From: a virus
Virus genome (UHGV): UHGV-0037349
Direction: 5' to 3' (one strand)
Length of the DNA: 28,385 nucleotides
The translations under genes and the position numbers were made by a program. The notes under the pieces are model-generated. The model ran no database searches. It worked only from the letters and a program-made list of their open reading frames with translations, and had not been told where the DNA came from. Shown piece by piece: positions 11 through 26,100 of the stretch; within the stretch, counting starts at the first letter, position 1, and every line of letters starts with the position of its first letter.

Positions 11-1069
11 TTGGTGGGCATCGGAGATCACTTATTATCACGAGTATTCATGAAATCACTCCGCGATGATGAAAAATATAAGCACGCTAAATTCACCTTG
101 CTTGGCAACACTGCATTCAAAGATTTTTCTCTCAAGTTTGATATGAATATATTTAATCATTTCATTTGGGTTGATTGTAATAAGGTTACTCCTTATGTGC
201 AAACCAAAGAGAGCACATATACTAAGATTAAAAATAAAGCCATCAGGTTTTACATCAGAAATTTAATTAAGCACTCAAATTTCGATGAGATTATAGTTCC
301 AGATTGGTGGGGTGCGTCAACTACTTTGCGTGTTACTCCATTTATCTCTAGTGTGAGGGATAGAGCCATCATCAATGGTATGAATATACCTGACCATCAA
401 AGGGAGTTTTTTGGCTATTCCACAAAGCCGGATATTGATTTTTCAAAGCATGTCCTGGATATGAATAAAGAGTTTTTCTCTGAGATTATACCATTTCCTA
501 AATTCGAAGTTGAAATTCCACTAAAAAATAAAAATAAAGACAGTGGCAAGATTGATATTTGCATTTCACTGGGAGCCTCTGCGCCTTTTAAAAAATACCC
601 TGTATTACAATTAGCAAATGTAATAAACAGCATATCATCTTCATACAATGCCAATTTTAAAATCATTGGCTCCAATGATGAAATTTCAGATTACAATGTT
701 CTTATTGAGCATATCGATAACAAGGATATTGTAGCAGGTTTTGTTGGAAGGACTACATTATCTGAGTCGTGCGATATTGTTCTTTCATCTGAACTTTTGA
801 TTGCAAACGACACAGGCATGTTCCATGTTGGTGCTCTGGCAGGGATTAAAACTGTTTGTATTTCGAATGGTACTGGTTTGCATGCATTTGTGCCATACCC
901 TGAGGAATTTTCGAACTGTATTACGGTTTTCCCACCAGAGATACAAAACAAGGTAGGCACAAAAGATTTTATAAATGCACATGGCTGGTCTGGCTCAGCA
1001 ATTCCGATGTCGAATATATCACCAGACGATGTTCTTGCGGCTTGTTATAAATTGCTAAATAAAAAATAG
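11..1069 (+). CDS. Glycosyltransferase family 9 (LPS heptosyltransferase-like) protein; start uncertain and possibly 5'-truncated by the window edge
   Basis: Translation carries GT9-like motifs: GASAPFKKYP mid-protein and LLIANDTGMFHVGALAGIKTVCISNGTG near the C-terminus (compare recalled WaaC/WaaF/WaaQ pattern NDSGxMHxAAAL). The reading frame is open to position 2 with no in-frame stop, and the first start is a TTG at 11. Strongly AT-rich compared with the phage backbone. Confidence 0.55.
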   Translation: MVGIGDHLLSRVFMKSLRDDEKYKHAKFTLLGNTAFKDFSLKFDMNIFNHFIWVDCNKVTPYVQTKESTYTKIKNKAIRFYIRNLIKHSNFDEIIVPDWWGASTTLRVTPFISSVRDRAIINGMNIPDHQREFFGYSTKPDIDFSKHVLDMNKEFFSEIIPFPKFEVEIPLKNKNKDSGKIDICISLGASAPFKKYPVLQLANVINSISSSYNANFKIIGSNDEISDYNVLIEHIDNKDIVAGFVGRTTLSESCDIVLSSELLIANDTGMFHVGALAGIKTVCISNGTGLHAFVPYPEEFSNCITVFPPEIQNKVGTKDFINAHGWSGSAIPMSNISPDDVLAACYKLLNKK

Positions 1070-4667: not shown

Positions 4668-5013
4668 TCTCTGCTCCTGTTGATACGGAAAGGGAAACAG
4701 GCACACCGTTATTCCGCCGCCCGGTCAGCTCCACCACCATTGAACCGTCAAAATTGCTGTTGATGGTGATGGAATCCAGCGTCAGCCGTGGCTCCCAGCG
4801 ACTCAGCGCCACATACACTGCCGACATGACCTGCAGGCGTAATGCCGGATTTTGTGGCTGATCTATCAGTGCCGACAGCAGGGAACCATATTCCCGGCGA
4901 GCAATGCGGCTACCCTGCGGTGTCAGCAGAATGTCCCGCACCGACTGGCGCAGATGGTCAATATCAGTAATGGCTTTACCGCTGGTATTGTTCATCCCGC
5001 TATAAAGCGTCAT
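4654..5013 (-). CDS. Baseplate wedge protein (P2 W-like, gp25-like)
   Basis: 119-aa ORF; start ATG overlaps the V stop (ATGA); gene order V-W-J-I-H-G matches P2. Confidence 0.8.
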   Translation of the reverse strand: MTLYSGMNNTSGKAITDIDHLRQSVRDILLTPQGSRIARREYGSLLSALIDQPQNPALRLQVMSAVYVALSRWEPRLTLDSITINSNFDGSMVVELTGRRNNGVPVSLSVSTGAENGSD

Positions 5014-5588
5014 ACCGGGCCTCCGGTTGTATCGCCGCCTTTCAGGACGCCAGTATGCTGATGCACATCAACCACGATCCCGTTAGAACTCATCGCACCG
5101 CCGCCCTGGGTAACGCCGCCATTGATCACTACTTCACTATTAATACGCGTGCGGTCAGCCTCCAGCACAAACTCACTGGTTTTCAGGGTGATATTGTCGG
5201 CAGCCTCAATAACCATGGATTTGATGCCCCTGACATACCAGCGCCCGGTGGCGGGTTCGTATTCAAACCAGCCACCGTCAGGATGTTCTGTCACGCAGGC
5301 GTCCGCCGACGTCGACGGTGGTGCGAACTGATTCGAATAGACAGCGGGCAGCGCAAAGGCGGTCTCCAGATTGCCGCCCAGACTCAGCACCACCACCTGC
5401 TCACCTTCCGATGGTCGCCACCATGTCCGGGCATTCCCGGCACGCAGGGTCAGCCAGCTGATCCAGTTGGTTTCTAAGTCGCCTGTTTTCACCCGGCAAA
5501 GCCAGTTTTCCCTGTCCACTTCCGTGACTACACCAGTGCGGATCAGGTTGGTGATAAGGCGCATGATTTCGGTTAGTTGTGCATTCAT
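5010..5588 (-). CDS. Baseplate spike/assembly protein (P2 V-like)
   Basis: ORF track gives 5010..5609; the internal ATG at 5588 gives MNAQLTEIMRLITNLIRTGVV, matching the recalled P2 gpV N-terminal pattern. Confidence 0.8.
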   Translation of the reverse strand: MNAQLTEIMRLITNLIRTGVVTEVDRENWLCRVKTGDLETNWISWLTLRAGNARTWWRPSEGEQVVVLSLGGNLETAFALPAVYSNQFAPPSTSADACVTEHPDGGWFEYEPATGRWYVRGIKSMVIEAADNITLKTSEFVLEADRTRINSEVVINGGVTQGGGAMSSNGIVVDVHQHTGVLKGGDTTGGPV

Positions 5589-5632
5589 CCTTCTATAGTT
5601 GCAAAGCAAGATTTTTTTTCATCGTTGTGGCA

Positions 5633-5650
5633 GTGTATGATTTTTGGCAC
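5633..5650. promoter_or_regulatory. TGT-N12-ACA element (possible Ogr-type late promoter activator site upstream of V)
   Basis: Sequence TGTatgatttttggcACA lies ~50 bp upstream of the V start. The motif is short and several copies are expected by chance in 28 kb, so this is weak. Confidence 0.2.
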
Positions 5651-6825
5651 AATTGAATTCTCATATGGAGATGACTGAAATGATCTTTGCTGCACGTTAC
5701 TTGGTCGAGTTGCCTTATGTCCTCAATATTCCAGATGGTGATTATGATTTTCTATATGAAAATAACCATTTACGCTTAACAGTTCACAACGATTACTATG
5801 CACTATTTAAAGATGCAAGCTTATTCCCTCAAACCCTATTAATCGGTACCAGAGAACAACTACTACCACATCACACAAATGAAAGAGGGATAATGAAATG
5901 CCGGACTATTATTTCTCTCGCCAACTATTGGGAATGTTTTGACCTTTTAGAAATATCACATGAAGAACTAATCAACTCTATAAGAAACCAAATAAGGAAA
6001 GAAGATAACTTCCCATCTGTGGAAGATGCTGAGATGCTCCTATCCAAAATGAGCCAGCAAGATATAGATAAAAAAATAGAGTTGGAGAGAAAAATAAAAA
6101 CTGCTAGAGAGATATTTCCACCTAAAAGATCAGAGGAATGTATCGGAATAATAAACCACTTTATAAAACAGTATAGAGTTGCCTTTAAAGATCAATTTGC
6201 AGACGAGATATCTCTTTATCAAGTTGGCTCAGGATTTACCAACGGAGTGTTACAAGAGCATTATTGCGATGGTATTAAGATAAGTGCAATTCCTTTAGTT
6301 GGAGTAATCACCCCATTAATGAGAGAAAGCTGGTATAAACACGATGAAAGTCTCATTGATAATTTCAAAAAACGTTTAATGTCAAATGAATTCAATGAAC
6401 ATCCTGAACTATTATTGATTAGAGCAGACAATCTTGTTCATAAAGGTGCATTTAGATCAGCCGTAATTGAAGCATCAGCAGGCCTTGAAAGCTATATTCT
6501 CAGAAAAATTATTAATGCCTTTCATCGCAATGGTATCAATGAATGCCAGACAAAAGAAACATTAAATAAAAACTGGAAGTTCGATGATAGATGTAAAAAA
6601 CTATTCAAACAACTCTTTAACATCTCTGTACCCGAAATTGCGCCACTTGAGTGGCAACATGCAAATAAAAACAGGAAAGAATTACGTGACAAAATAGCTC
6701 ATACATCACATGAACCAACAGAGAAAGAAACAAAAGAATTTATAAAAAGCATCAATTTATTAATTGAAAAAATAGACTCATACTTTAAGAAAATTAATGA
6801 ATCTAACGAATCAAAAAATTTATGA
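5644..6825 (+). CDS. Hypothetical protein, AT-rich cargo gene inserted between V and S; possible HEPN-like C-terminal motif
   Basis: 393-aa ORF on the opposite strand to the tail operon, markedly AT-rich. True start may be ATG 5665, 5671 or 5680 (GGAG at 5667-5670). C-terminal RKELRDKIAHTSHE contains an Rx4H arrangement. No other motif recognised. Confidence 0.6.
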   Translation: MAQLNSHMEMTEMIFAARYLVELPYVLNIPDGDYDFLYENNHLRLTVHNDYYALFKDASLFPQTLLIGTREQLLPHHTNERGIMKCRTIISLANYWECFDLLEISHEELINSIRNQIRKEDNFPSVEDAEMLLSKMSQQDIDKKIELERKIKTAREIFPPKRSEECIGIINHFIKQYRVAFKDQFADEISLYQVGSGFTNGVLQEHYCDGIKISAIPLVGVITPLMRESWYKHDESLIDNFKKRLMSNEFNEHPELLLIRADNLVHKGAFRSAVIEASAGLESYILRKIINAFHRNGINECQTKETLNKNWKFDDRCKKLFKQLFNISVPEIAPLEWQHANKNRKELRDKIAHTSHEPTEKETKEFIKSINLLIEKIDSYFKKINESNESKNL

Positions 6826-7249
6826 TTATCTCTTCTATAATATCAAAATCAGTATCATAAATTCCAAGTAACCTACGTTTAGCATAACGTATCTGTGGCC
6901 CCTTACGGCTGACGCGATCACGCAAGCCGTAATGGTGAACACGGGCAATGCGCTGTACCTTGCCTTCAAACTGCACGCTGGCAGAATCGGCGCTGGCGGC
7001 AGTTTTCAGGTATTTTGTGGTTCGCAGCTTTGCAAACATCTGACGTTTGATGCGCCCCTTTTTACTGCGTGCTGTTACCCGTCGCGGTTCATAACTACTG
7101 CCATCTGGATTGCGTTGCATCCTGATGTTCTGCTGCTGTATCCGGCGCAGTTCCTGCGCCAGCTGGCGCATCATGCGGCTTCTTGCGGCTGGCTCCAGAT
7201 TCGCCAGCAAGGCACTCAGCCAGTCGTCCACTTTCTGCAGTTCAGCCAC
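6803..7249 (-). CDS. Tail completion protein (P2 S-like)
   Basis: 148-aa ORF; sequence MAELQKVDDWLSALLANLEPAARSRMMRQLAQELRR and position between R and V fit P2 gpS. Confidence 0.8.
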   Translation of the reverse strand: MAELQKVDDWLSALLANLEPAARSRMMRQLAQELRRIQQQNIRMQRNPDGSSYEPRRVTARSKKGRIKRQMFAKLRTTKYLKTAASADSASVQFEGKVQRIARVHHYGLRDRVSRKGPQIRYAKRRLLGIYDTDFDIIEEIIINFLIR

Positions 7250-7673
7250 GTTTCACCGTCCACATTTCTTCAGGTTCATCAGGTTCCGCTATAGCTTCAA
7301 CGCTCGACACACTACCGTCAGTGCTGACCAGCACACGCTCCGTCAGTTGCAGGTTCAGGCTGATATCACAGACATCGTTGCGCAGAATATCCACCTCAAA
7401 GGTGAATAGTTTTTCCCGTAACGCCGGGTTATTGATGGCATCGGGCTGGTTATCCCTCAGCCACAGCAAAACCGGGGCCATCAGCAGATTCTGGTCGCCG
7501 CTGAAATCCTCAATCACCGCGTTCAGGGTGTAACGGTACTCCCACGACATGGAGTTGGCCCCCGTGGCAACCAGCGAACCGTTATCCACAAACAGATGCA
7601 GTTTGTCCGGGTTATTGCGGACATAAGGTACCGCTTTATTGAGGGCGTGGCGCAGGGATTGTGGTTTGTTCAC
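7242..7673 (-). CDS. Tail completion protein (P2 R-like)
   Basis: ORF track gives 7242..7694 from a TTG; a GTG at 7673 is preceded by GGAG at about 8 nt spacing and gives NKPQSLRHALNKAV, resembling the recalled P2 gpR N-terminus. Confidence 0.75.
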   Translation of the reverse strand: MNKPQSLRHALNKAVPYVRNNPDKLHLFVDNGSLVATGANSMSWEYRYTLNAVIEDFSGDQNLLMAPVLLWLRDNQPDAINNPALREKLFTFEVDILRNDVCDISLNLQLTERVLVSTDGSVSSVEAIAEPDEPEEMWTVKRG

Positions 7674-15547: not shown

Positions 15548-15575
15548 ATGAGTAAGGGCTAGGCCCTTACTCATT
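15547..15575. terminator. Perfect 13-bp inverted repeat between convergent portal and RT genes (probable bidirectional terminator or junction palindrome)
   Basis: aATGAGTAAGGGC-tag-GCCCTTACTCATt overlaps the stop codons of both Q (plus) and the RT (minus). Flanking sequence is AT-rich but has no clean U-tract. Confidence 0.4.
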
Positions 15576-16544
15576 CAATCTATCAATATATTCACTATAG
15601 TTAACATGCCCCTTAATTTTATCAAAATCCTTCTCAACTATTTTCCCAGTCCTCAATAAATGTTTATATGCTCTAATTTTATTTCGATAGCCTTTAGTCA
15701 ATCTAGGTTTATTTTCATGAACTAGAAAACCATGTACTTTTAATCTATTAGGAATCCTAGCTATTCTGAGTTTTTCCTCAGCCACAACCCAATTATCAGA
15801 TAGTAACAACTCTACAACATTATCTTTAAGTTCCTCGATATCAAATGTTTCATCATCACCGGAGAAGGTCAAATCATCAGCATATCTAGTATATTTAATA
15901 CCCGTATTAGAAATCAACTCATTAATCTTTAAGTCAGTTGACCTAAATACTAAATTTGAGATAACAGGGCTACTTGGCGCACCTTGCGGAAGTCTCTGAT
16001 TAAAGGTAAGTAATTCACTCAATTTAGCAGCCTGATCGGCTCTATATCCTATTTCAACTAATGTTGAAATCACTATATCTGAAGTGATCGTATGGAAAAA
16101 ATCTCTTAAATCAATAGACAGGATCCATTTTGCACCACAATGTTTACTTGCAGCTTCATATATCCCATTCTTACCTGGGATAAAAGCATATGCATTTTCA
16201 CTTATGCCAAGACTATGATTAATGCTTAAATGATGAGCGACCCAAGACTGAATGATTTTTATACTAACCTTGGGTGCTTCAATAATTCTTTTTTTCTTTC
16301 CTCTTCCTTTGGAAATAGAAAAAACACGATAGTATTTTGACTTATTCTTAATTAACGAAGTAATAAATTGTGGGCTTACACCAATGGCAACAGACAAGAT
16401 ACTCCAAGAAACTAATGGGGGAAGCCTGAGGCCTTGTAGTCGAATAAGTTCCGCATAATATCTATCTCTCAGCGGTGTGCTCAACGCCTTAAGAAACTGT
16501 TCGGCATCAGTGAATGTGAAAAATAAGGGTAGTGGCGTTTTCAT
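15567..16544 (-). CDS. Retron-type reverse transcriptase
   Basis: 325-aa ORF with RT motifs: FIPGKNGIYEAASKHCGAKWILSIDLRDFF (retron-like F-x-G ... H ... DIxxFF block), LPQGAPSSPVISNLV, YTRYADDLTFS (YADD catalytic box), and a downstream VHGFLV segment resembling the retron VTG region. Size fits retron RTs (about 300-330 aa) and is too small for the Abi-type RTs I recall. Confidence 0.8.
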   Translation of the reverse strand: MKTPLPLFFTFTDAEQFLKALSTPLRDRYYAELIRLQGLRLPPLVSWSILSVAIGVSPQFITSLIKNKSKYYRVFSISKGRGKKKRIIEAPKVSIKIIQSWVAHHLSINHSLGISENAYAFIPGKNGIYEAASKHCGAKWILSIDLRDFFHTITSDIVISTLVEIGYRADQAAKLSELLTFNQRLPQGAPSSPVISNLVFRSTDLKINELISNTGIKYTRYADDLTFSGDDETFDIEELKDNVVELLLSDNWVVAEEKLRIARIPNRLKVHGFLVHENKPRLTKGYRNKIRAYKHLLRTGKIVEKDFDKIKGHVNYSEYIDRLNE

Positions 16545-16715
16545 AAGGTCAATCCTTAAGCAAAGCTGATGAAAACTTTCGTTGATGACGCCTGCGAATC
16601 AGCAGACGTTTCGAAGGAACGACTGCTGATTCGCAGGCGCACATTCTGTCCGCGACCTTCACAAATGAGCATGATGCATACTCTCGTGAACGCCACTACC
16701 AACGTGAATATACCA
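16545..16715 (-). ncRNA. Candidate retron msr-msd non-coding RNA (intergenic region with long perfect hairpin)
   Basis: 171-bp gap between the upstream ORF and the RT. It contains a 17-bp perfect inverted repeat (CGCCTGCGAATCAGCAG / CTGCTGATTCGCAGGCG, 16589-16605 and 16623-16639) with a 17-nt loop and no U-tract behind it. Exact RNA ends and the a1/a2 repeats were not resolved by eye. Confidence 0.4.
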
Positions 16716-17459
16716 CTATAGATGTTTGCGTGCAAGATAAAGGACCCTCTCTATATCAGAACTTTGCCTAGATTTAGTCACTGGAACTATTTCTAACCCT
16801 GACAATGTCATTCTATAAGTTCCGTCATGGCTTCTTAATAAAAATCCTTTCTTACGTAAGTTGTCTAGCTTCCCATTCAGCCAATCAAGTGATTCAATAT
16901 GATAATCGCCATTATCAAGTTGACTGAACAATCTTGGAAGATCAAAGGGCTGACATTTTTTTGCCGCTCTTAAAATAACCATCATTGTAGGTTCAGGATT
17001 GTTTTTAGCCTCATATACAAATGAAGTCACTTTTATATTAAAACCGTTTAATATCCCTACAACTAACGACTCCCACTTCTCGCGTTCTGATAATGTAAGG
17101 TTTTTACAAAAGACATAAAGCACTGCGTTTTGCGAATCAAAGAAAGATAAATTCAAATCAGATATCTTCCCTTTTTTAAAATTACTTCTCGCTAATGCCA
17201 CTAAAGCCGCTTCAATATTGTCTTTATCTGAAAATGGTGAGTAACTAATCAACACTCTTACATTTAGCTTTTCTGTTATTCGTTTCACCAATAAAGATAT
17301 CTGGCGTTTTGTTATACTATTCGAAGCAGACAATGGCACTATTTTGTTAATTGGGATGATCAACAGAATTGTATCCATAAAATCTGTTACATCTTTAACT
17401 TTTATGAACGGGAATTTTACCAACAATTCTGATAATATTTTCTGGTTAGACAAAGCCAA
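16716..17459 (-). CDS. Hypothetical protein, retron-associated (candidate effector/accessory protein)
   Basis: 247-aa ORF co-oriented with the RT, AT-rich, and overlapping the upstream ORF by 14 bp. No catalytic motif recognised; the C-terminal segment (LRKKGFLLRSHDGTYRMTLSGLEIV) could be a winged-helix-like region, which is speculative. Confidence 0.55.
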   Translation of the reverse strand: MALSNQKILSELLVKFPFIKVKDVTDFMDTILLIIPINKIVPLSASNSITKRQISLLVKRITEKLNVRVLISYSPFSDKDNIEAALVALARSNFKKGKISDLNLSFFDSQNAVLYVFCKNLTLSEREKWESLVVGILNGFNIKVTSFVYEAKNNPEPTMMVILRAAKKCQPFDLPRLFSQLDNGDYHIESLDWLNGKLDNLRKKGFLLRSHDGTYRMTLSGLEIVPVTKSRQSSDIERVLYLARKHL

Positions 17460-17970
17460 TCTCCTTCATAATTCTGGTAACCTTCGATCTTTCTGAATTA
17501 ATGGTTTGTAGCCACCCCTTAGCCGAAGCCACTGATGTTTTATTAATCGAAAAACTGCCATTACAGAATATCATCTCAATTTCCGGCTCATAATCAACAA
17601 CTCCCCTAATTGTATATGCCAATGCCATAGTTGAAGCCATATTGTTCAGTGAAGTACGTATTAAGCTCTTTTTAGATTTATATTCACATAAAGTTATATC
17701 GCCAATTTTTTCTGATTTTTGGAGCTCAACTTCTATCTTTCTACTTACACTATCACGTAATAATTTTGGAACATCTGCATGCTTGACCTTGCCCCAATTG
17801 GAATCAATAGTTGAAACAAACTCACGGACGTTAAGAAAACAAGCATAATAATACCGATTAAAAGCAGAACGACCATATGCATCTGCTAATATTGCGTGCA
17901 CCTCCCCCTTTCTATGGGTTGTATTAGCCTGCTTAACAAGGTGGTCTGCTACAAGGTGTAAAACAGTCAT
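17446..17970 (-). CDS. Hypothetical protein, first gene of the retron-associated operon
   Basis: 174-aa ORF, AT-rich, start preceded by AAGGGTAGG. Contains HRKGEVH (an Rx4H arrangement) near the N-terminus; function unknown. Confidence 0.5.
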   Translation of the reverse strand: MTVLHLVADHLVKQANTTHRKGEVHAILADAYGRSAFNRYYYACFLNVREFVSTIDSNWGKVKHADVPKLLRDSVSRKIEVELQKSEKIGDITLCEYKSKKSLIRTSLNNMASTMALAYTIRGVVDYEPEIEMIFCNGSFSINKTSVASAKGWLQTINSERSKVTRIMKEIGFV

Positions 17971-18398: not shown

Positions 18399-19058
18399 TT
18401 ATTCTGTTGAGATTGTAGATATTTCGGCTTGTTTTTTCTCTATGTAGATCCGACATTCCGCAAGGCATTTACCTACGGCACCACCGAAGTTTGGCCCTGA
18501 CGAAAGCAGCAATGCATCGACATTCTTGATTGATTCAAAGAAGGAAGGTGAGGTTTCAGGATTAAGGTATGTCATCAATAACATCCTTGCTGAAAGGGTG
18601 CGATGCGATGATGTAATGTAGCTTTCATGTGCTGCATTTCTCTTATCAATAAAATCGTTATTACCCTTAAGAATGTAATCCATTGCAAGGTTATAATCGT
18701 TTTTGTACCTATTAGATTCAAGCGCTAAGGATAGGTACTGGGCACATGATTCCCGCACGTTCCGACATTCTTCTTTTTTTATCTCAATTTCCGTAGCAAT
18801 TTGAGTTTGCACTTTCAGTGCTTTGGTTTGCTGCGCAATATTTTTGTCGAATTCAGATGCTTGCCGTTTTGAGGTGATTTCAAATTGGCGGTGTGAACGA
18901 TTCATAGCCCGCCATGCAACAAAAGCAGTTGCCGCAGCTGGCAGAACAGCTTTTGCGAGGTCAAACCATGGAGTCAGGGGCTCCTTTTGACTCGCAATTT
19001 GTACCGTTACCACGTCTTTAGCGGGCTTCAGTACTTCCAATAACTGAATGATGTCCAT
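18399..19058 (-). CDS. Hypothetical single-pass membrane protein (cargo between cos and the DinI-like module)
   Basis: 219-aa ORF with one predicted TM helix (LAKAVLPAAATAFVAWRAM) followed by a charged helical region; AGGAAAAAGG upstream of the ATG. No homology recognised. Confidence 0.55.
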   Translation of the reverse strand: MDIIQLLEVLKPAKDVVTVQIASQKEPLTPWFDLAKAVLPAAATAFVAWRAMNRSHRQFEITSKRQASEFDKNIAQQTKALKVQTQIATEIEIKKEECRNVRESCAQYLSLALESNRYKNDYNLAMDYILKGNNDFIDKRNAAHESYITSSHRTLSARMLLMTYLNPETSPSFFESIKNVDALLLSSGPNFGGAVGKCLAECRIYIEKKQAEISTISTE

Positions 19059-19259
19059 TGCCTTTTTCCTGAGAAAAAGAAACCATCATAGCAAAAAGCC
19101 TGCCGCTTGCTAGGGGCTTCCCACGCCTAACCCTTCACGAAATTGAATCCTCTCCGGCCTTTTCGTTATCTGTCCGCATTGAGGGCGGCTAACGCCTCGT
19201 ACGGCTCGTTGTTCAACCTTGCTGGCGCCAGAAGCAAGTTCAGACGCCAGCAACGTTTC

Positions 19260-19493
19260 TTAATGCAGCCAGCTGTCGTCTTCCCACACCTTCTGCATAA
19301 TTTTCATCACTTGTTTTCTTTCTTCGTCCAGTTGCAGTCCGGTCAGTTCCACACCGTTAGAGCTACCTTTGCGGATACGAATTACCGTTTTGGGATACAG
19401 GGGGCGCAGATTGCGGTAAAGCTCGGATTCAAGGGCGTCCAGGATAGACTGGCTAATCTTCTGCTCTTTATCGATCATTATTTCAATGCGCAT
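19260..19493 (-). CDS. DinI-family protein
   Basis: Start taken at internal ATG 19493 (MRIEIMIDKEQ...) with GAGGTGA upstream. The C-terminus IMQKVWEDDSWL resembles the DinI C-terminus as I recall it (ETWESADDWF). The ORF track extends it to 19565. Confidence 0.6.
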   Translation of the reverse strand: MRIEIMIDKEQKISQSILDALESELYRNLRPLYPKTVIRIRKGSSNGVELTGLQLDEERKQVMKIMQKVWEDDSWLH

Positions 19494-19503
19494 AAAAGTC
19501 ACC

Positions 19504-19692
19504 TCAACTGATGACATCCATTGAGCGGTTGTATTCGTGGGTTCTGATTTTTGCCATGAGTTCATCTGTTAGTTCAGAAATCCACTGCAAAGCCAGCCCC
19601 TTCTCTTCATCACTACACTCACTAGCCGCTACAAGCTTAAGAAAAAAATCAATGCGCTGGAGCTTCAAAGACTCCAAAAAATAGTCCTGCAT
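19504..19692 (-). CDS. Small hypothetical protein, first gene downstream of the LexA box (Tum-region-like)
   Basis: 62-aa ORF immediately upstream of the DinI-like gene; the upstream extension of the DinI ORF overlaps it in another frame. Confidence 0.35.
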   Translation of the reverse strand: MQDYFLESLKLQRIDFFLKLVAASECSDEEKGLALQWISELTDELMAKIRTHEYNRSMDVIS

Positions 19693-19732
19693 CTTTCCTC
19701 CTATGACACCAAAGCAATGCTGTATACATAAC

Positions 19733-19752
19733 CACTGTTTATATTTACAGTA
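19733..19752. promoter_or_regulatory. LexA (SOS) box
   Basis: caCTGTttatatttACAGta matches the CTGT-N8-ACAG LexA consensus and lies ~45 bp upstream of the minus-strand small ORF/DinI-like genes, in an AT-rich promoter-like region. Confidence 0.55.
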
Positions 19753-19844
19753 TATAATAATCTTACTGATGTAAAACGTTTTTTTACGTTCATCAGCCTG
19801 AAATGCCTGGTATTATTAAGAGCACGAATTGTTAACCCGCGTAA

Positions 19845-22259
19845 TTAATACAGGTTCCGCCACTTATCATCTTCCTGCAAACGCTGGTTCCGATAGAAGA
19901 TACGCAGGCCTGCTCCTGACGGAATACTGCCGCCACGAAGGAGTAAATAGACCTCTTTCTCGCTGCCATCAAATCCTCTGGACTTCAGTTCATAGACGAG
20001 CTGCTGTCGCTGATGGTCTGTAATTCGCTGTTTGTAGTCTTTACGCCGTTTCGGTTTCACCAAGCGTAACCTTGCAGCCAATTCCCGGCGCTCTTTTTTG
20101 CTCATACTGTGCAGGTATTCGTGCAACTCCTTGTCATCCATGCGGGTAATGTCCGTTCTGGTATCCCCATCAGCTGATTTGTCTTTCCCTTGTTGGTTCA
20201 AATTTTCAGCCAGGGGACAGTTATTGCCACGAGTCCAAGGGGCGCAAGCGCCCTGGTCGGCTGCCGCCTCCTGAACGTCAACGGCCTTACGAACCATTTT
20301 CCACTTCACTGCATGAGTGCAGATCTTGCCCTCTGCAATGGGTGACCAGATGCCATAAATACGAATACCGTGATCACCATAGGCGGTCGGCTCTTCGTTG
20401 ATTTCATAAGCGGTTCTGATCAAGTGATATTTGCGGGGAACCAACACGCCGCCCTGCTTCATAATGTAGGTGGCAAAACAGCCAGCATCAGCAGCAGCCA
20501 GAATGGCATCAAGACGCGGATCATCCAGTACCGGCGCACCTGCTTTTTTGTCACCCTGCTGCCTTGCCGCCTGACCAGCCAGCAATCGCAGTTCACGGTA
20601 AGCCTGACGCCCCGGAATGCCAAAGAAGCGGAATTGCTGAACACGATGCAGAGACGCCCAAGCATTAACGTATTCAGCGTTATCACGCAGGGATTTACCC
20701 GTTTCCTTGCTGATCTCGCCAGCCAGACCACGCCCGTCAATGTTCTTACTGATGTATTTCGCGATGTAGCTTGTCGGCGTTCCTTTGCGCGGGTTAATCA
20801 GCTCAGACTTAAAGCGTGGCCCCGTGTTATTGCCCAGTTCCTCGCGGTCTTCACGGATGGCAAACTTACGCAGTAATGCAGTGATGGCGCGGCGGTCTTT
20901 TTTACGCATGAAGCACATGAGATGCCAGTGCACAGTACCGTCATGATGCGGCTCAGCCACCCGCACGCCATACCACCGCAATCCGGCTTTGTGCATCGCC
21001 TTACGAAATGCAGCAAACATGCCGACCAGATAATCACTGCTTTGTCTTACCGTCGCATTTGTCCAGGTCGGGTTTGGTCTGCCGTTATTGAGCGTGGAAT
21101 GGAAACGTGACGGACAGGTGATGGTGTAGAAAACGGCGCAGTCACCGCGCATTTCCGCGATAAGCTCCAGACCTTTAACGCAGGCCATCATCTCATTGCG
21201 GCGATGTGCCGGGTTGCTGCTGCTGGCGTTTACCACATCTTCCATATCCAGCGTGTCTCCGTCTTCGTTCACCAGTTCATGAGAACGGAAAAACTCCAGC
21301 GACTTGCGGCGCTGCTCACGTTTATGCGTCACTGCTTCATAGCTGACATAGGGAGATGCTTTTTTGCTGACCAGACAGACAGCACGCAACTGCTCTTCCC
21401 GCCATTCGCAACGCATCTTCCACAATTTTCGATACCACCAGTCGGCGCAAAGCATACGTGCCAGCGAACCCGGTATGAGTTCATAGGGCACAGGTTTGCG
21501 GCGGTTTCTTTTCCGACGAAGTTTCTCAAACGCAGGCGGGATAACATCCAGACGCAGGGTTTCCGCAGCCACCTTTTCCCATGTCTTGCGGATTTCTTCT
21601 GGCTTAACGTCATCGGTGGCGTACAAATCACCACAAGCGGCCTCAAGACACATGCTCATATGCGCTGCTACCAGGGTGGACAGGCGTTTCACCTGATCCT
21701 GGCTCATTTCAGGCAGGATCAGCAGCCCCTCCAGCCCTTGATGGCTTGCCATAAAACGGAAAGAAACAGATAGCTGACTGTCACGTACACAATCCAGTCG
21801 CTCCAGACATGGCTTAATCGTCTCACGCAAATAGCGGGAATAAGCCTTTGGCCTGCCCAGGCTGCTGAAGTATTCGATACGTTGCATCAGCGGCTTGCTG
21901 ATATGAGAAGGCTGGGCGCTGACATCTGCCAGAATGACCATGTCCGGGTTAAAACGCTGCTGCTCATGCGCCAGCTTTGCCCGGCTAATGAGCTTATCCT
22001 GCTCCATTTCGCGCTGGACAGGATCACGGGATTCATTAAAGAAATAACGCTCCCAGACCTGCTCACTCAGTGCCTCGCGGCGCAGTTGTTCCTGCTCGTT
22101 ATCGGCAGCGTACAGAGTGATCAGGTTTGAAAGTGCAGACTCCGGCGCAACTTCCGCCGGATCCAGATAAGGGTTAATGGCCTTTTTCGGGCCGTTCCAT
22201 GAAAATGCTGCGGCAGCCTCGTTAAAGCCGCTAGAGTTGCTCATATCGTCATGACTCAT
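19845..22259 (-). CDS. Replication initiation endonuclease (P2 A-like rolling-circle initiator)
   Basis: 804-aa ORF with HUH-like motif (TVHWHLMCF) and a downstream tyrosine motif (YIAKYISK); start overlaps the Dam stop. Confidence 0.85.
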
Positions 22260-25178: not shown

Positions 25179-25267
25179 AAGGCAACATTCCTTCTAGATA
25201 TGGCTTGTGGCGAGCCGTTGTTTGTCGTGATTAGTAGTGAAGGCTCCAAAAGAACACTTCTGGTTCA

Positions 25268-25296
25268 ACTTTAAGATCGCTTTTGGAATCTGTCAA
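25268..25296 (-). promoter_or_regulatory. Candidate early lytic promoter (pR-like) in the immunity switch region
   Basis: Minus-strand TTGACA (25291-25296) and TAAAGT (25268-25273) with 17-bp spacing, ~80 bp upstream of the Apl-like gene and facing the repressor leader. By-eye prediction only. Confidence 0.25.
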
Positions 25297-25323
25297 CGAA
25301 TTTTGGATTTCTTTGGAGGACTT

Positions 25324-25893
25324 GTGGATTTCAATAGCGGCGGTAAGAAAGCCATAGAACGTTTAGTTGAAGCATATGGGTTCGGTACCCGTCAGGCTCT
25401 CTGTGATCATTTAGGTGTTTCTAAGAGCACCATGGCAACGCGCTATATGCGTGATATTTTTCCAGCAGATTGGGTAATCCAGTGCGCCCTTGAAACGGGC
25501 ACCTCGCTTAATTGGCTAACAACAGGGCATGGTTCAAAGCAAGCATCAGCAAATACAAATACTATAGAAGTAGAAAAATATTTATTGTCTGATGGAGCAT
25601 TGCAGAAAGACGGTTTTTATATTTTTGATAAGGGATTTCTACCCTCTACGTTTAAAAAACCTTTTGTCATCACAGATAACAATTCTGAATTTATTTGTGA
25701 TAAAGAATTTGATGATATACGTGATGGTAAATGGGTAATAAGTATTGATGGCGAAATAACGATCCGTGACATTACTCGTTTACCCGGTGGAAGAATCTTC
25801 GTCGAGGGTGGAAACAGAGCCTTCGAATGCAAGATAGAAGACATTGAAATAATTGGTAAAATTATAAGTTTAACAGTCAAGTATGTTAAATAG
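25324..25893 (+). CDS. cI: CI-type immunity repressor (186 CI-like)
   Basis: ORF track gives 25237..25893; I place the start at in-frame GTG 25324 so the protein begins near ERLVEAYGFGTRQALCDHLGVSKSTMATRYMR, which resembles the recalled 186 CI N-terminal HTH (ICEAYGF...CALETGANLQWLLTG). The start is uncertain. C-terminal half is AT-rich. Confidence 0.65.
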   Translation: MDFNSGGKKAIERLVEAYGFGTRQALCDHLGVSKSTMATRYMRDIFPADWVIQCALETGTSLNWLTTGHGSKQASANTNTIEVEKYLLSDGALQKDGFYIFDKGFLPSTFKKPFVITDNNSEFICDKEFDDIRDGKWVISIDGEITIRDITRLPGGRIFVEGGNRAFECKIEDIEIIGKIISLTVKYVK

Positions 25894-25908
25894 TACCGGG
25901 AGGAAACT

Positions 25909-26100
25909 ATGCTTGGTAAGGTATTTTTTGTGGTTTTGTCATGTTCTTTGTTATTAAACCCACTAACTACCTATGCTAGAAATTATCCCTGCTCAGGGAA
26001 AAAGGGAGGTGTTTCTCACTGTACCTCAGATGGCAAATTCGTTTGCAATGATGGAACTATTAGTAAATCCAAAAAAATCTGTACTAAAAACTCACGATAA
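25909..26100 (+). CDS. Small Cys-containing secreted protein or lipoprotein (moron between repressor and integrase)
   Basis: 63-aa ORF with a strong RBS (GGGAGG), an N-terminal signal peptide ([19 protein letters not shown]) and four Cys in the mature part; AT-rich. Confidence 0.5.

Follow-up and report, generated by a model that had tools for sequence, protein, structure and literature searches.

An exchangeable gene in the orf30 slot of a P2-like Escherichia coli prophage encodes a protein with a predicted C-terminal HEPN domain

The virus genome UHGV-0037349 was analyzed over its whole stretch of 28,385 nucleotides (the window). It represents a P2/186-like prophage of Escherichia coli and is 100% identical to strain NH-21 at positions 5000–7300. 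Between the genes for the baseplate spike protein gpV and the tail completion protein gpS, the window carries an AT-rich gene on the opposite strand (the cargo gene, 5671..6825, +). Judged from sequence comparison and a structural model, the C-terminal half of its 384-residue product is a HEPN domain with an intact catalytic signature. We consider it reasonably probable that the cargo protein is a self-contained, single-protein HEPN ribonuclease (RNase), which is carried as exchangeable cargo of the orf30 position and serves the lysogen as an abortive-infection or superinfection-exclusion factor. Residue numbers are counted from the ATG at 5671 throughout.

Predicted domain structure of the cargo protein

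An AlphaFold2 model built with 20 homologs (pLDDT 84.2, pTM 0.77) divides the cargo protein into a β-rich N-terminal region (strands within residues 4–89), helices 97–172, a β-hairpin (193–210), and a helical domain (226–383). The helical domain corresponds to the predicted HEPN domain, which model and alignment place at residues 223–384 (6337..6822, +). It assumes a four-helix up-and-down bundle of two α-hairpins. The insert between the two hairpins consists of short helices (291–300, 304–316, and 320–323) and is less conserved than helices 2 and 3.

By the definition of Anantharaman et al. (2013; PMC3710099), helix 3 of a HEPN domain ends with an Rx4–6H motif whose arginine is directly followed by a polar residue (mostly N, D, or H), helix 2 contributes a conserved acidic residue next to the motif, and an insert separates the two helices. 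In the model, helix 325–344 closes with R339-x4-H344 and is followed by a loop (345–350) and helix 351–383; R339 and H344 of this Rx4H motif (RDKIAH; 6685..6702, +) are the predicted catalytic residues. The residue after the arginine is D in the cargo protein and H, N, or D across 45 family representatives, with Q in three. At least 90% of these representatives conserve the acidic residue E267. It lies in model helix 261–286, within the helix-2 block RSAVIEASAGLE (6454..6489, +), which follows the pattern R262-S-A-x2-E-A-S-A-x2-E; R262 is invariant, and E273 is also part of the helix. The translations of both motifs were verified.

The motif alone is no evidence for a HEPN domain, because an Rx4H string arises at random in 53% of shuffles of the cargo protein (Rx4–6H in 89%). 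Five Rx4–6H strings are present in the protein itself, and only the one at residues 339–344 is conserved. In a domain alignment of 36 sequences that extends down to about 20% identity, no columns other than R339 and H344 are invariant, and these two residues are invariant in all three family and domain alignments. When relatives of the domain were scanned singly, their most frequent Pfam matches were families of the HEPN clan: HEPN_RiboL-PSP in eight relatives (best 9e-7), HEPN in seven, Hypoth_Ymh in five (best 4e-7), HEPN_Apea in five (best 2.8e-4), and DUF4145 in five. Further matches within the clan were to Swt1, Csm6, AbiV, AbiU2, and HepT-like families. We base the HEPN assignment on the agreement of fold, motif position, motif invariance, and these transitive sequence links.

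A preliminary description of the window had proposed, as a speculation, a HEPN-like domain from the RDKIAH string, to be backed by a helical bundle around the motif, and both the domain and the bundle are supported by the position of the motif at the end of helix 3, the invariance of R339 and H344, and the HEPN-clan matches of the relatives. The families that it had named as candidates, Abi_2/AbiD/AbiF, are matched neither by the protein (Pfam, PADLOC) nor by its domain relatives. Membership in these families was rejected, as it was for HepT/MNT, ApeA, DARNA, HepS, and any PADLOC system. Weak matches of the cargo protein to CysS and to group II reverse transcriptases in the family scans were set aside as noise. 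When the PDB sequences were searched with profiles of the full-length and of the C-terminal alignment, no HEPN chain was returned, and the only matches were to spurious low-complexity helices (annexin, designed repeats). Foldseek against the BFVD viral structures yielded nothing at E ≤ 0.001.

The N-terminal domain (residues 1–148; 5671..6114, +), as delimited in the model, is a candidate sensor or regulatory domain. It comprises a seven-strand antiparallel β-sheet region (4–89, with one short helix, 61–67, inside), followed by variable helices 97–148. No known fold relative was found for these ∼150 residues. The middle module (residues 149–222; 6115..6336, +) consists of a helix, the β-hairpin, and a linker, and contains N162 and G192, which are invariant among the 45 representatives. 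Its N-terminal boundary is set by profile matches that start at about residue 150: many relatives share with the cargo protein only the C-terminal ∼150 residues, or residues ∼150–384, behind unrelated N termini, and in some proteins with a different architecture the middle module and the HEPN domain occur together.

The cargo gene in the orf30 slot

The cargo open reading frame (ORF) spans 5644..6825 (+) and would encode 393 amino acids if counted from the TTG at 5644. The preliminary description had taken this extent for the gene; the ORF exists, but the start probably lies later. PGAP places the start in NH-21 at ATG 5671 (384 amino acids), and phrog_28299, a PHROG family of unknown function, likewise opens there. 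The majority of homologs open at the residue equivalent to ATG 5680 (MIFAARY...; 381 amino acids), which sits 9 nucleotides after a GGAG at 5667–5670. The true start is therefore probably ATG 5671 or 5680.

The gene encoding gpV (5010..5588, −, PGAP coordinates; Pfam Phage_base_V, 5e-18) is divergent from the cargo gene, and the gene encoding gpS, which functions in tail completion and virion morphogenesis (6803..7249, −; Phage_tail_S, 3.3e-41), is convergent with it. As the preliminary description had stated, the AT-rich ORF fills the V–S gap on the opposite strand and overlaps the S stop codon: the tail-to-tail overlap comprises 23 bp (6803..6825) and leaves no space for a terminator between the two genes. 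The G+C content is 0.315–0.352 over 5601–6800 versus 0.49–0.58 in the neighboring intervals, and 0.33 for the cargo gene itself versus about 0.55 for its flanks.

P2 carries orf30, a nonessential gene on the opposite strand, in this slot, with the O-operon terminator on one side and the pV activator site on the other. This position is one of three regions of P2-like phages with horizontally acquired genes; the remaining two, TO (tin/old) and Z (fun), host exclusion genes (PMC3091744, PMC6823313). Functional defense screens covered the TO and Z regions, not the orf30 slot. The cargo gene shares the hallmarks of the orf30 region, namely the position between gpS and gpV, absence or replacement in close prophages, and a foreign composition. 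In 28 of 48 prophages sampled evenly across the ranking of E. coli P2-like prophages, only a 68-bp gap separates V from S, and the other 20 have a different single gene in between. The adjacency that had been presented as the P2-family layout therefore applies to these 28 prophages but not to the other 20 or to P2, which carries orf30. The cargo gene was found in 21 of 1041 complete E. coli genomes with V/S flanks.

The breakpoints of the exchange are sharp. Homology to prophages with an empty or otherwise filled slot ends at the ATG of V (5588/5589) and resumes at 6882 (6897 in one locus), ∼26 codons ahead of the S stop codon. These breakpoints define a variable cassette (5589..6881) that combines the cargo gene with the pV promoter region and with a cassette-specific stretch of gpS, its last ∼26 codons. 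Accordingly, the C-terminal tail of gpS (6803..6881, −) varies by cargo type and here reads ...GIYDTDFDIIEEIIINFLIR. This variation implies that the C terminus of the essential gpS tolerates wholesale replacement. A rearranged locus (L026) is found in the EPEC reference strain E. coli E2348/69 (NC_011601.1, 870628–884509): relative to R/S, the segment from V to the tail-fiber genes, together with the cargo gene, is inverted. This locus has a truncated S, annotated as incomplete, and a recombinase-family gene directly after the cargo gene, which is itself intact.

We observed 11 kinds of cargo in the slot. Ten of them are oriented opposite to V and S and lie tail-to-tail with S, the sole co-directional cargo being a TIR-domain gene. 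Every cargo checked is AT-rich, with a G+C content of 0.33–0.37. Candidate-defense families of PADLOC (PADLOC-DB v2.0.0, the defense-system library used throughout) are matched by three of the 10 alternative cargo proteins: the FRG protein corresponds to PDC-S15 (9e-32), the DUF2971 protein to PDC-S31 (3e-24), and the TIR protein shows weak matches to PDC-S66, SpbK, and ThsB. A DUF6216 protein recurs in the slot; its gene overlaps gpS by 59 bp in one locus (L036, NZ_AP024687.1) and is present in the prophage of B-derived E. coli laboratory strains (NEBExpress, B95).

Proposed regulatory layout of the cassette

A TGT-N12-ACA dyad at 5634..5651 is, from its geometry and the P2 annotation, the predicted Ogr-type late-activator site of promoter pV. 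Its center lies 54.5 bp from the ATG of V and 20–29 bp upstream of the cargo start codon. In P2, the annotated pV activator site is centered 55.5 bp from the V start and transcription start. A dyad-to-V spacing of 54.5–56.5 bp is also found in distant homolog loci and in prophages with other cargo (L003–L005, L007, and L008), and L032 keeps it as well. The spacing is kept although the surrounding promoter sequence is nonhomologous between cassettes. The locus of a homolog with 33% identity (L011) has its only dyad 16.5 bp from the ATG of V and may therefore use a different site. At the empty site, the dyad is located 4 bp from the S stop codon.

The intergenic region between V and the cargo gene comprises 82 bp, and with a start codon 20–29 bp beyond the dyad, the cargo promoter must overlap the pV activator region. 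At the other end, the homolog loci range between a gap of 37 bp to S and an overlap of 16 bp with it, compared with the 23-bp overlap in the window. A terminator scan found only weak terminator-like sites, all inside the cargo gene. With a promoter within the Ogr site and a 3′ end that runs head-on into S, the cargo gene would be on in the lysogen and off when the late genes fire. A reasonable inference from this layout is expression in the lysogen while the late operons are silent, damped later by activator binding and convergent transcription. Whether the orf30 slot is even a purpose-built, self-silencing immunity dock, which here carries a new HEPN abortive-infection family whose N-terminal domain recognizes a component of competing phages, we regard as doubtful; if true, autoimmunity would be solved without an inhibitor protein.

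Homologs of the cargo protein

An exhaustive profile search identified 198 relatives of the cargo protein at E ≤ 0.001. The full-length ones form about 45 clusters at 50% identity and are spread across phyla, and the 90%-identity cluster of the cargo protein has 278 members. Locus scans with two of the alignments, one on genome contigs and the other on viral contigs, found no relative. One distant relative, P0120 (632 amino acids), contains the domain studied here at residues 258–404, followed by a separate HEPN_AbiU2 domain at 439–625 (6.8e-9), and thus shows a tandem-HEPN architecture.

All enterobacterial homologs with readable flanks reside in the same slot and in the same orientation, from 87% down to 33% identity. 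They originate from Citrobacter, Pantoea, and metagenomic and IMG/VR contigs. Their divergence tracks that of V and S but is faster, with identities for cargo/V/S of 100/99/99, about 44/65/58, and 33/50/43%. The G+C content of the homologs stays at 0.32–0.37 even where the flanks reach 0.59–0.62. Members of a deeper branch (25–36% identity to the sub-alignment of that branch) are solo genes on the chromosomes of four distant bacteria, namely a Pseudoalteromonas (beside an IS110 transposase), a planctomycete, a verrucomicrobium, and a Firmicute. Three of these four genes closely match their surroundings in composition. The two deep-branch loci that were scanned (Pseudoalteromonas and planctomycete) show no P2 context and no common partner gene. 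None of the homologs lies in a context with a known unrelated function; the preliminary description had named such contexts as evidence that would speak against its proposal.

As the enterobacterial family is confined to one late-region slot of P2-like phages and co-diverges with V and S, the protein might act in the phage's own life cycle or in counter-defense, for instance by processing phage or host transcripts, by interfering with the satellite P4, or by degrading cyclic-oligonucleotide immune signals; some HEPN nucleases do deplete cyclic oligoadenylates. We consider a benefit of this kind to the phage unlikely. The gene is dispensable, as the slot is empty in about 58% of the sampled prophages and filled with unrelated genes in others. 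Its orientation against the late operons and its AT-richness resemble the known exclusion genes of P2, and the deep-branch homologs stand alone on chromosomes in nonphage contexts.

A single gene as the unit of function

No second gene is present in the cassette (5589–6881). Among the homologs, neither the P2 loci nor the scanned solo loci share a conserved neighbor or an MNT antitoxin gene, and no antisense ORF is conserved. Rfam gave no match anywhere in the window, and no tandem repeats were found near the cargo gene. As no partner is shared in any scanned locus, the unit of function is the single gene.

These results bear on the idea that the cargo protein is the toxin of a toxin–antitoxin or addiction module, that is, a HEPN RNase restrained by a protein or RNA antitoxin that stabilizes the prophage. 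Many HEPN proteins are toxins of such modules (HepT/MNT, RnlA/LsoA, and AbiF with its RNA antitoxin), and the convergent overlap with S could in principle give rise to an antisense RNA. With no second gene, conserved antisense ORF, tandem-repeat RNA, Rfam family, MNT gene, or other conserved neighbor, a module of this type is quite improbable.

Proposed function of the cargo protein

For the lysogen-protecting HEPN RNase that we favor, the following course of events can be envisaged. In the lysogen, a promoter of its own would drive the cargo gene in the direction opposite to the late operons, which are silent at that stage, and the protein would be inactive at rest. The N-terminal or middle region would sense a cue from an infecting phage, upon which HEPN domains would pair to form a composite, metal-independent RNase site. 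Cleavage of tRNA anticodon loops or other RNA would then stop translation and abort the infection, as HepS, ApeA, DARNA, and Tha do. Late transcription of the prophage itself would probably damp the expression of the cargo gene, whose promoter must overlap the pV activator site and whose 3′ end borders on the O-operon. For the cargo protein itself, we infer RNase activity, expression in the lysogen, a trigger, an RNA target, and an abortive outcome.

The HEPN fold could also serve without catalysis, in a ligand- or RNA-binding regulator such as MtlR or the HEPN partners of nucleotidyltransferases, or the protein could be a lysogenic-conversion factor that has nothing to do with RNA cleavage. 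This is very unlikely, since noncatalytic HEPN families typically lose the Rx4–6H motif, whereas here the catalytic arginine and histidine are the sole invariant positions of the domain and the acidic residue of helix 2 is kept.

Several observations weigh against a defensive HEPN RNase. No curated defense or HEPN model of Pfam, NCBIfam, or PADLOC reaches its threshold on the cargo protein. Its own match to HEPN_RiboL-PSP has an E value of 0.02 and 15.3 bits against a cut-off of 28.4, and its best PADLOC match is Csx20-HEPN at E 0.31. In the search of HEPN models that the preliminary description had suggested, relatives found with the profile of the protein match HEPN-clan families, and the matches of the protein itself stay below threshold. 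PADLOC does work on the window, because a type IX retron of the same prophage scores 1e-52 to 6e-129 with the same library. The protein is hypothetical in every database, its only family entry being the PHROG of unknown function. A tblastn search against 50,697 deposited phage genomes gave no match. The known copies reside in chromosomal prophages and in viral contigs predicted from genomes and metagenomes (IMG/VR) rather than in isolated, sequenced phages. Seven of the 10 alternative cargo proteins, including P2 Orf30 and the DUF6216 protein, have no defense-related match, which makes an argument from guilt by association weak. Finally, a scan of the 82-bp intergenic region for consensus promoters found none. 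A literature search by accession retrieved no paper that mentions the protein.

The cargo gene is under purifying selection. Its ratio of nonsynonymous to synonymous substitution rates (dN/dS) is 0.16 in comparison with a homolog of 87% identity and 0.10 with one of 74%, similar to the ratios of its essential neighbors (V, 0.09–0.13; S, 0.12–0.16). For a homolog of 71% identity, saturation of dS over the whole gene precluded a ratio. Constraint in the closest pair is weakest in the N-terminal domain (dN/dS 0.34) and strongest in the middle module (0.06), a pattern from this one comparison that fits a conserved effector joined to a faster-evolving recognition surface. The view that the ORF is spurious or decaying, a piece of functionless AT-rich DNA, as its hypothetical status and foreign composition might suggest, can practically be dismissed in view of the dN/dS of 0.10–0.16, the 278-member cluster and the about 45 full-length clusters across phyla, the confident structure prediction, and the motifs that are invariant across the family.

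Comparison with known HEPN defense proteins and P2 cargo genes

Single HEPN defense proteins encoded by prophages are known from Salmonella (HepS of Gifsy-1; PMC13043305) and Staphylococcus aureus (Tha; PMC11087260). No sequence relationship between HepS and the cargo protein was detected, and the PDB library searched should include HepS chains. An N-terminal extension of ∼220 residues, of unknown fold, distinguishes the cargo protein from HepS. The carriers differ as well, HepS residing in a lambdoid phage and the cargo protein in a myovirus-like P2, and so do the slots.

Like the cargo gene, a candidate for the same role, tha is a prophage HEPN defense gene in antisense or convergent transcription with phage genes, and this layout has been proposed to switch immunity off upon induction of its own prophage (PMC11087260). 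Tha has an inhibitor, Ith, which is produced from a small overlapping antisense gene, whereas no conserved antisense ORF exists at the cargo gene. Self-silencing of the cargo gene would be analogous in outcome but would have to proceed by promoter occlusion or transcriptional interference.

ApeA and DARNA/PD-T7-3 combine a sensor and a HEPN tRNase in a single protein (bioRxiv 10.64898/2026.01.26.701840, 10.64898/2026.02.22.705581). The cargo protein resembles them in that one polypeptide unites a putative noncatalytic sensing region with a predicted HEPN RNase, and some relatives of its domain weakly match HEPN_Apea. However, the models for ApeA and PD-T7-3 are unmatched by the cargo protein (Pfam, PADLOC). 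DARNA carries its HEPN domain at the N terminus and the cargo protein at the C terminus. The N-terminal domain of ApeA has about 300 residues and is mostly β, whereas that of the cargo protein is shorter and lacks a detectable relative. PrrC/RloC and RnlA/LsoA are HEPN nucleases of anticodons or mRNA and have N-terminal regulatory domains as well. The cargo protein differs from these by the lack of an ABC-ATPase domain, and its gene by the lack of a linked restriction-modification system or antitoxin gene.

Among the genes of P2 itself, orf30 shares with the cargo gene the slot between S (the end of the O-operon) and pV, the opposite strand, the AT-richness, and its nonessential nature. Its product shows no sequence similarity to the cargo protein and has no known function. 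The P2 genes old, tin, and fun(Z) exclude other phages and represent the same kind of cargo, with TO and Z being the experimentally explored hotspots.

If the cargo protein is an active defense nuclease, a family for which Pfam, NCBIfam, and PADLOC hold no model would join the single-protein HEPN abortive-infection systems, together with a sensor domain without known fold relatives, whose trigger escape mutants could reveal. The third classical variable region of P2, orf30, would then count as a defense hotspot beside TO and Z/fun; about 40% of the sampled E. coli P2-like prophages hold some gene in this slot, mostly unannotated. The architecture of the cassette also suggests a testable, inhibitor-free route by which a prophage may avoid targeting itself. 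The general picture is unchanged, as HEPN abortive-infection proteins and P2 cargo hotspots are both well established.

Other features of the prophage

The gpA/portal (old-tin) hotspot of the same prophage contains a complete type IX retron (15567..17970, −). It comprises RT_IX (15567..16544, −; PADLOC 6e-129), HTH_IX (16716..17459, −; 1.5e-61), and HEPN_IX (17446..17970, −; 1.4e-52). No retron noncoding RNA of Rfam scored above threshold in the window, and the msr/msd RNA was not located. Alignment of the cargo domain profile with the HEPN protein of the retron by hhalign revealed no similarity. With HEPN_IX and the predicted HEPN domain of the cargo protein, the prophage would thus carry two unrelated HEPN-type effectors.

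An AT-rich gene for a family-9 glycosyltransferase (11..1069, +; Pfam Glyco_transf_9, 2.9e-7) lies beside a tail-fiber assembly gene and occupies the slot of Z/fun in P2; in NH-21, an IS3 element is located beside it. This gene is possibly a lysogenic-conversion gene that modifies lipopolysaccharide. Further patches of low G+C content (0.35–0.42) are found at 18401..20000 and 25201..26000, in the early and immunity regions, the latter patch covering the CI repressor gene (25237..25893).

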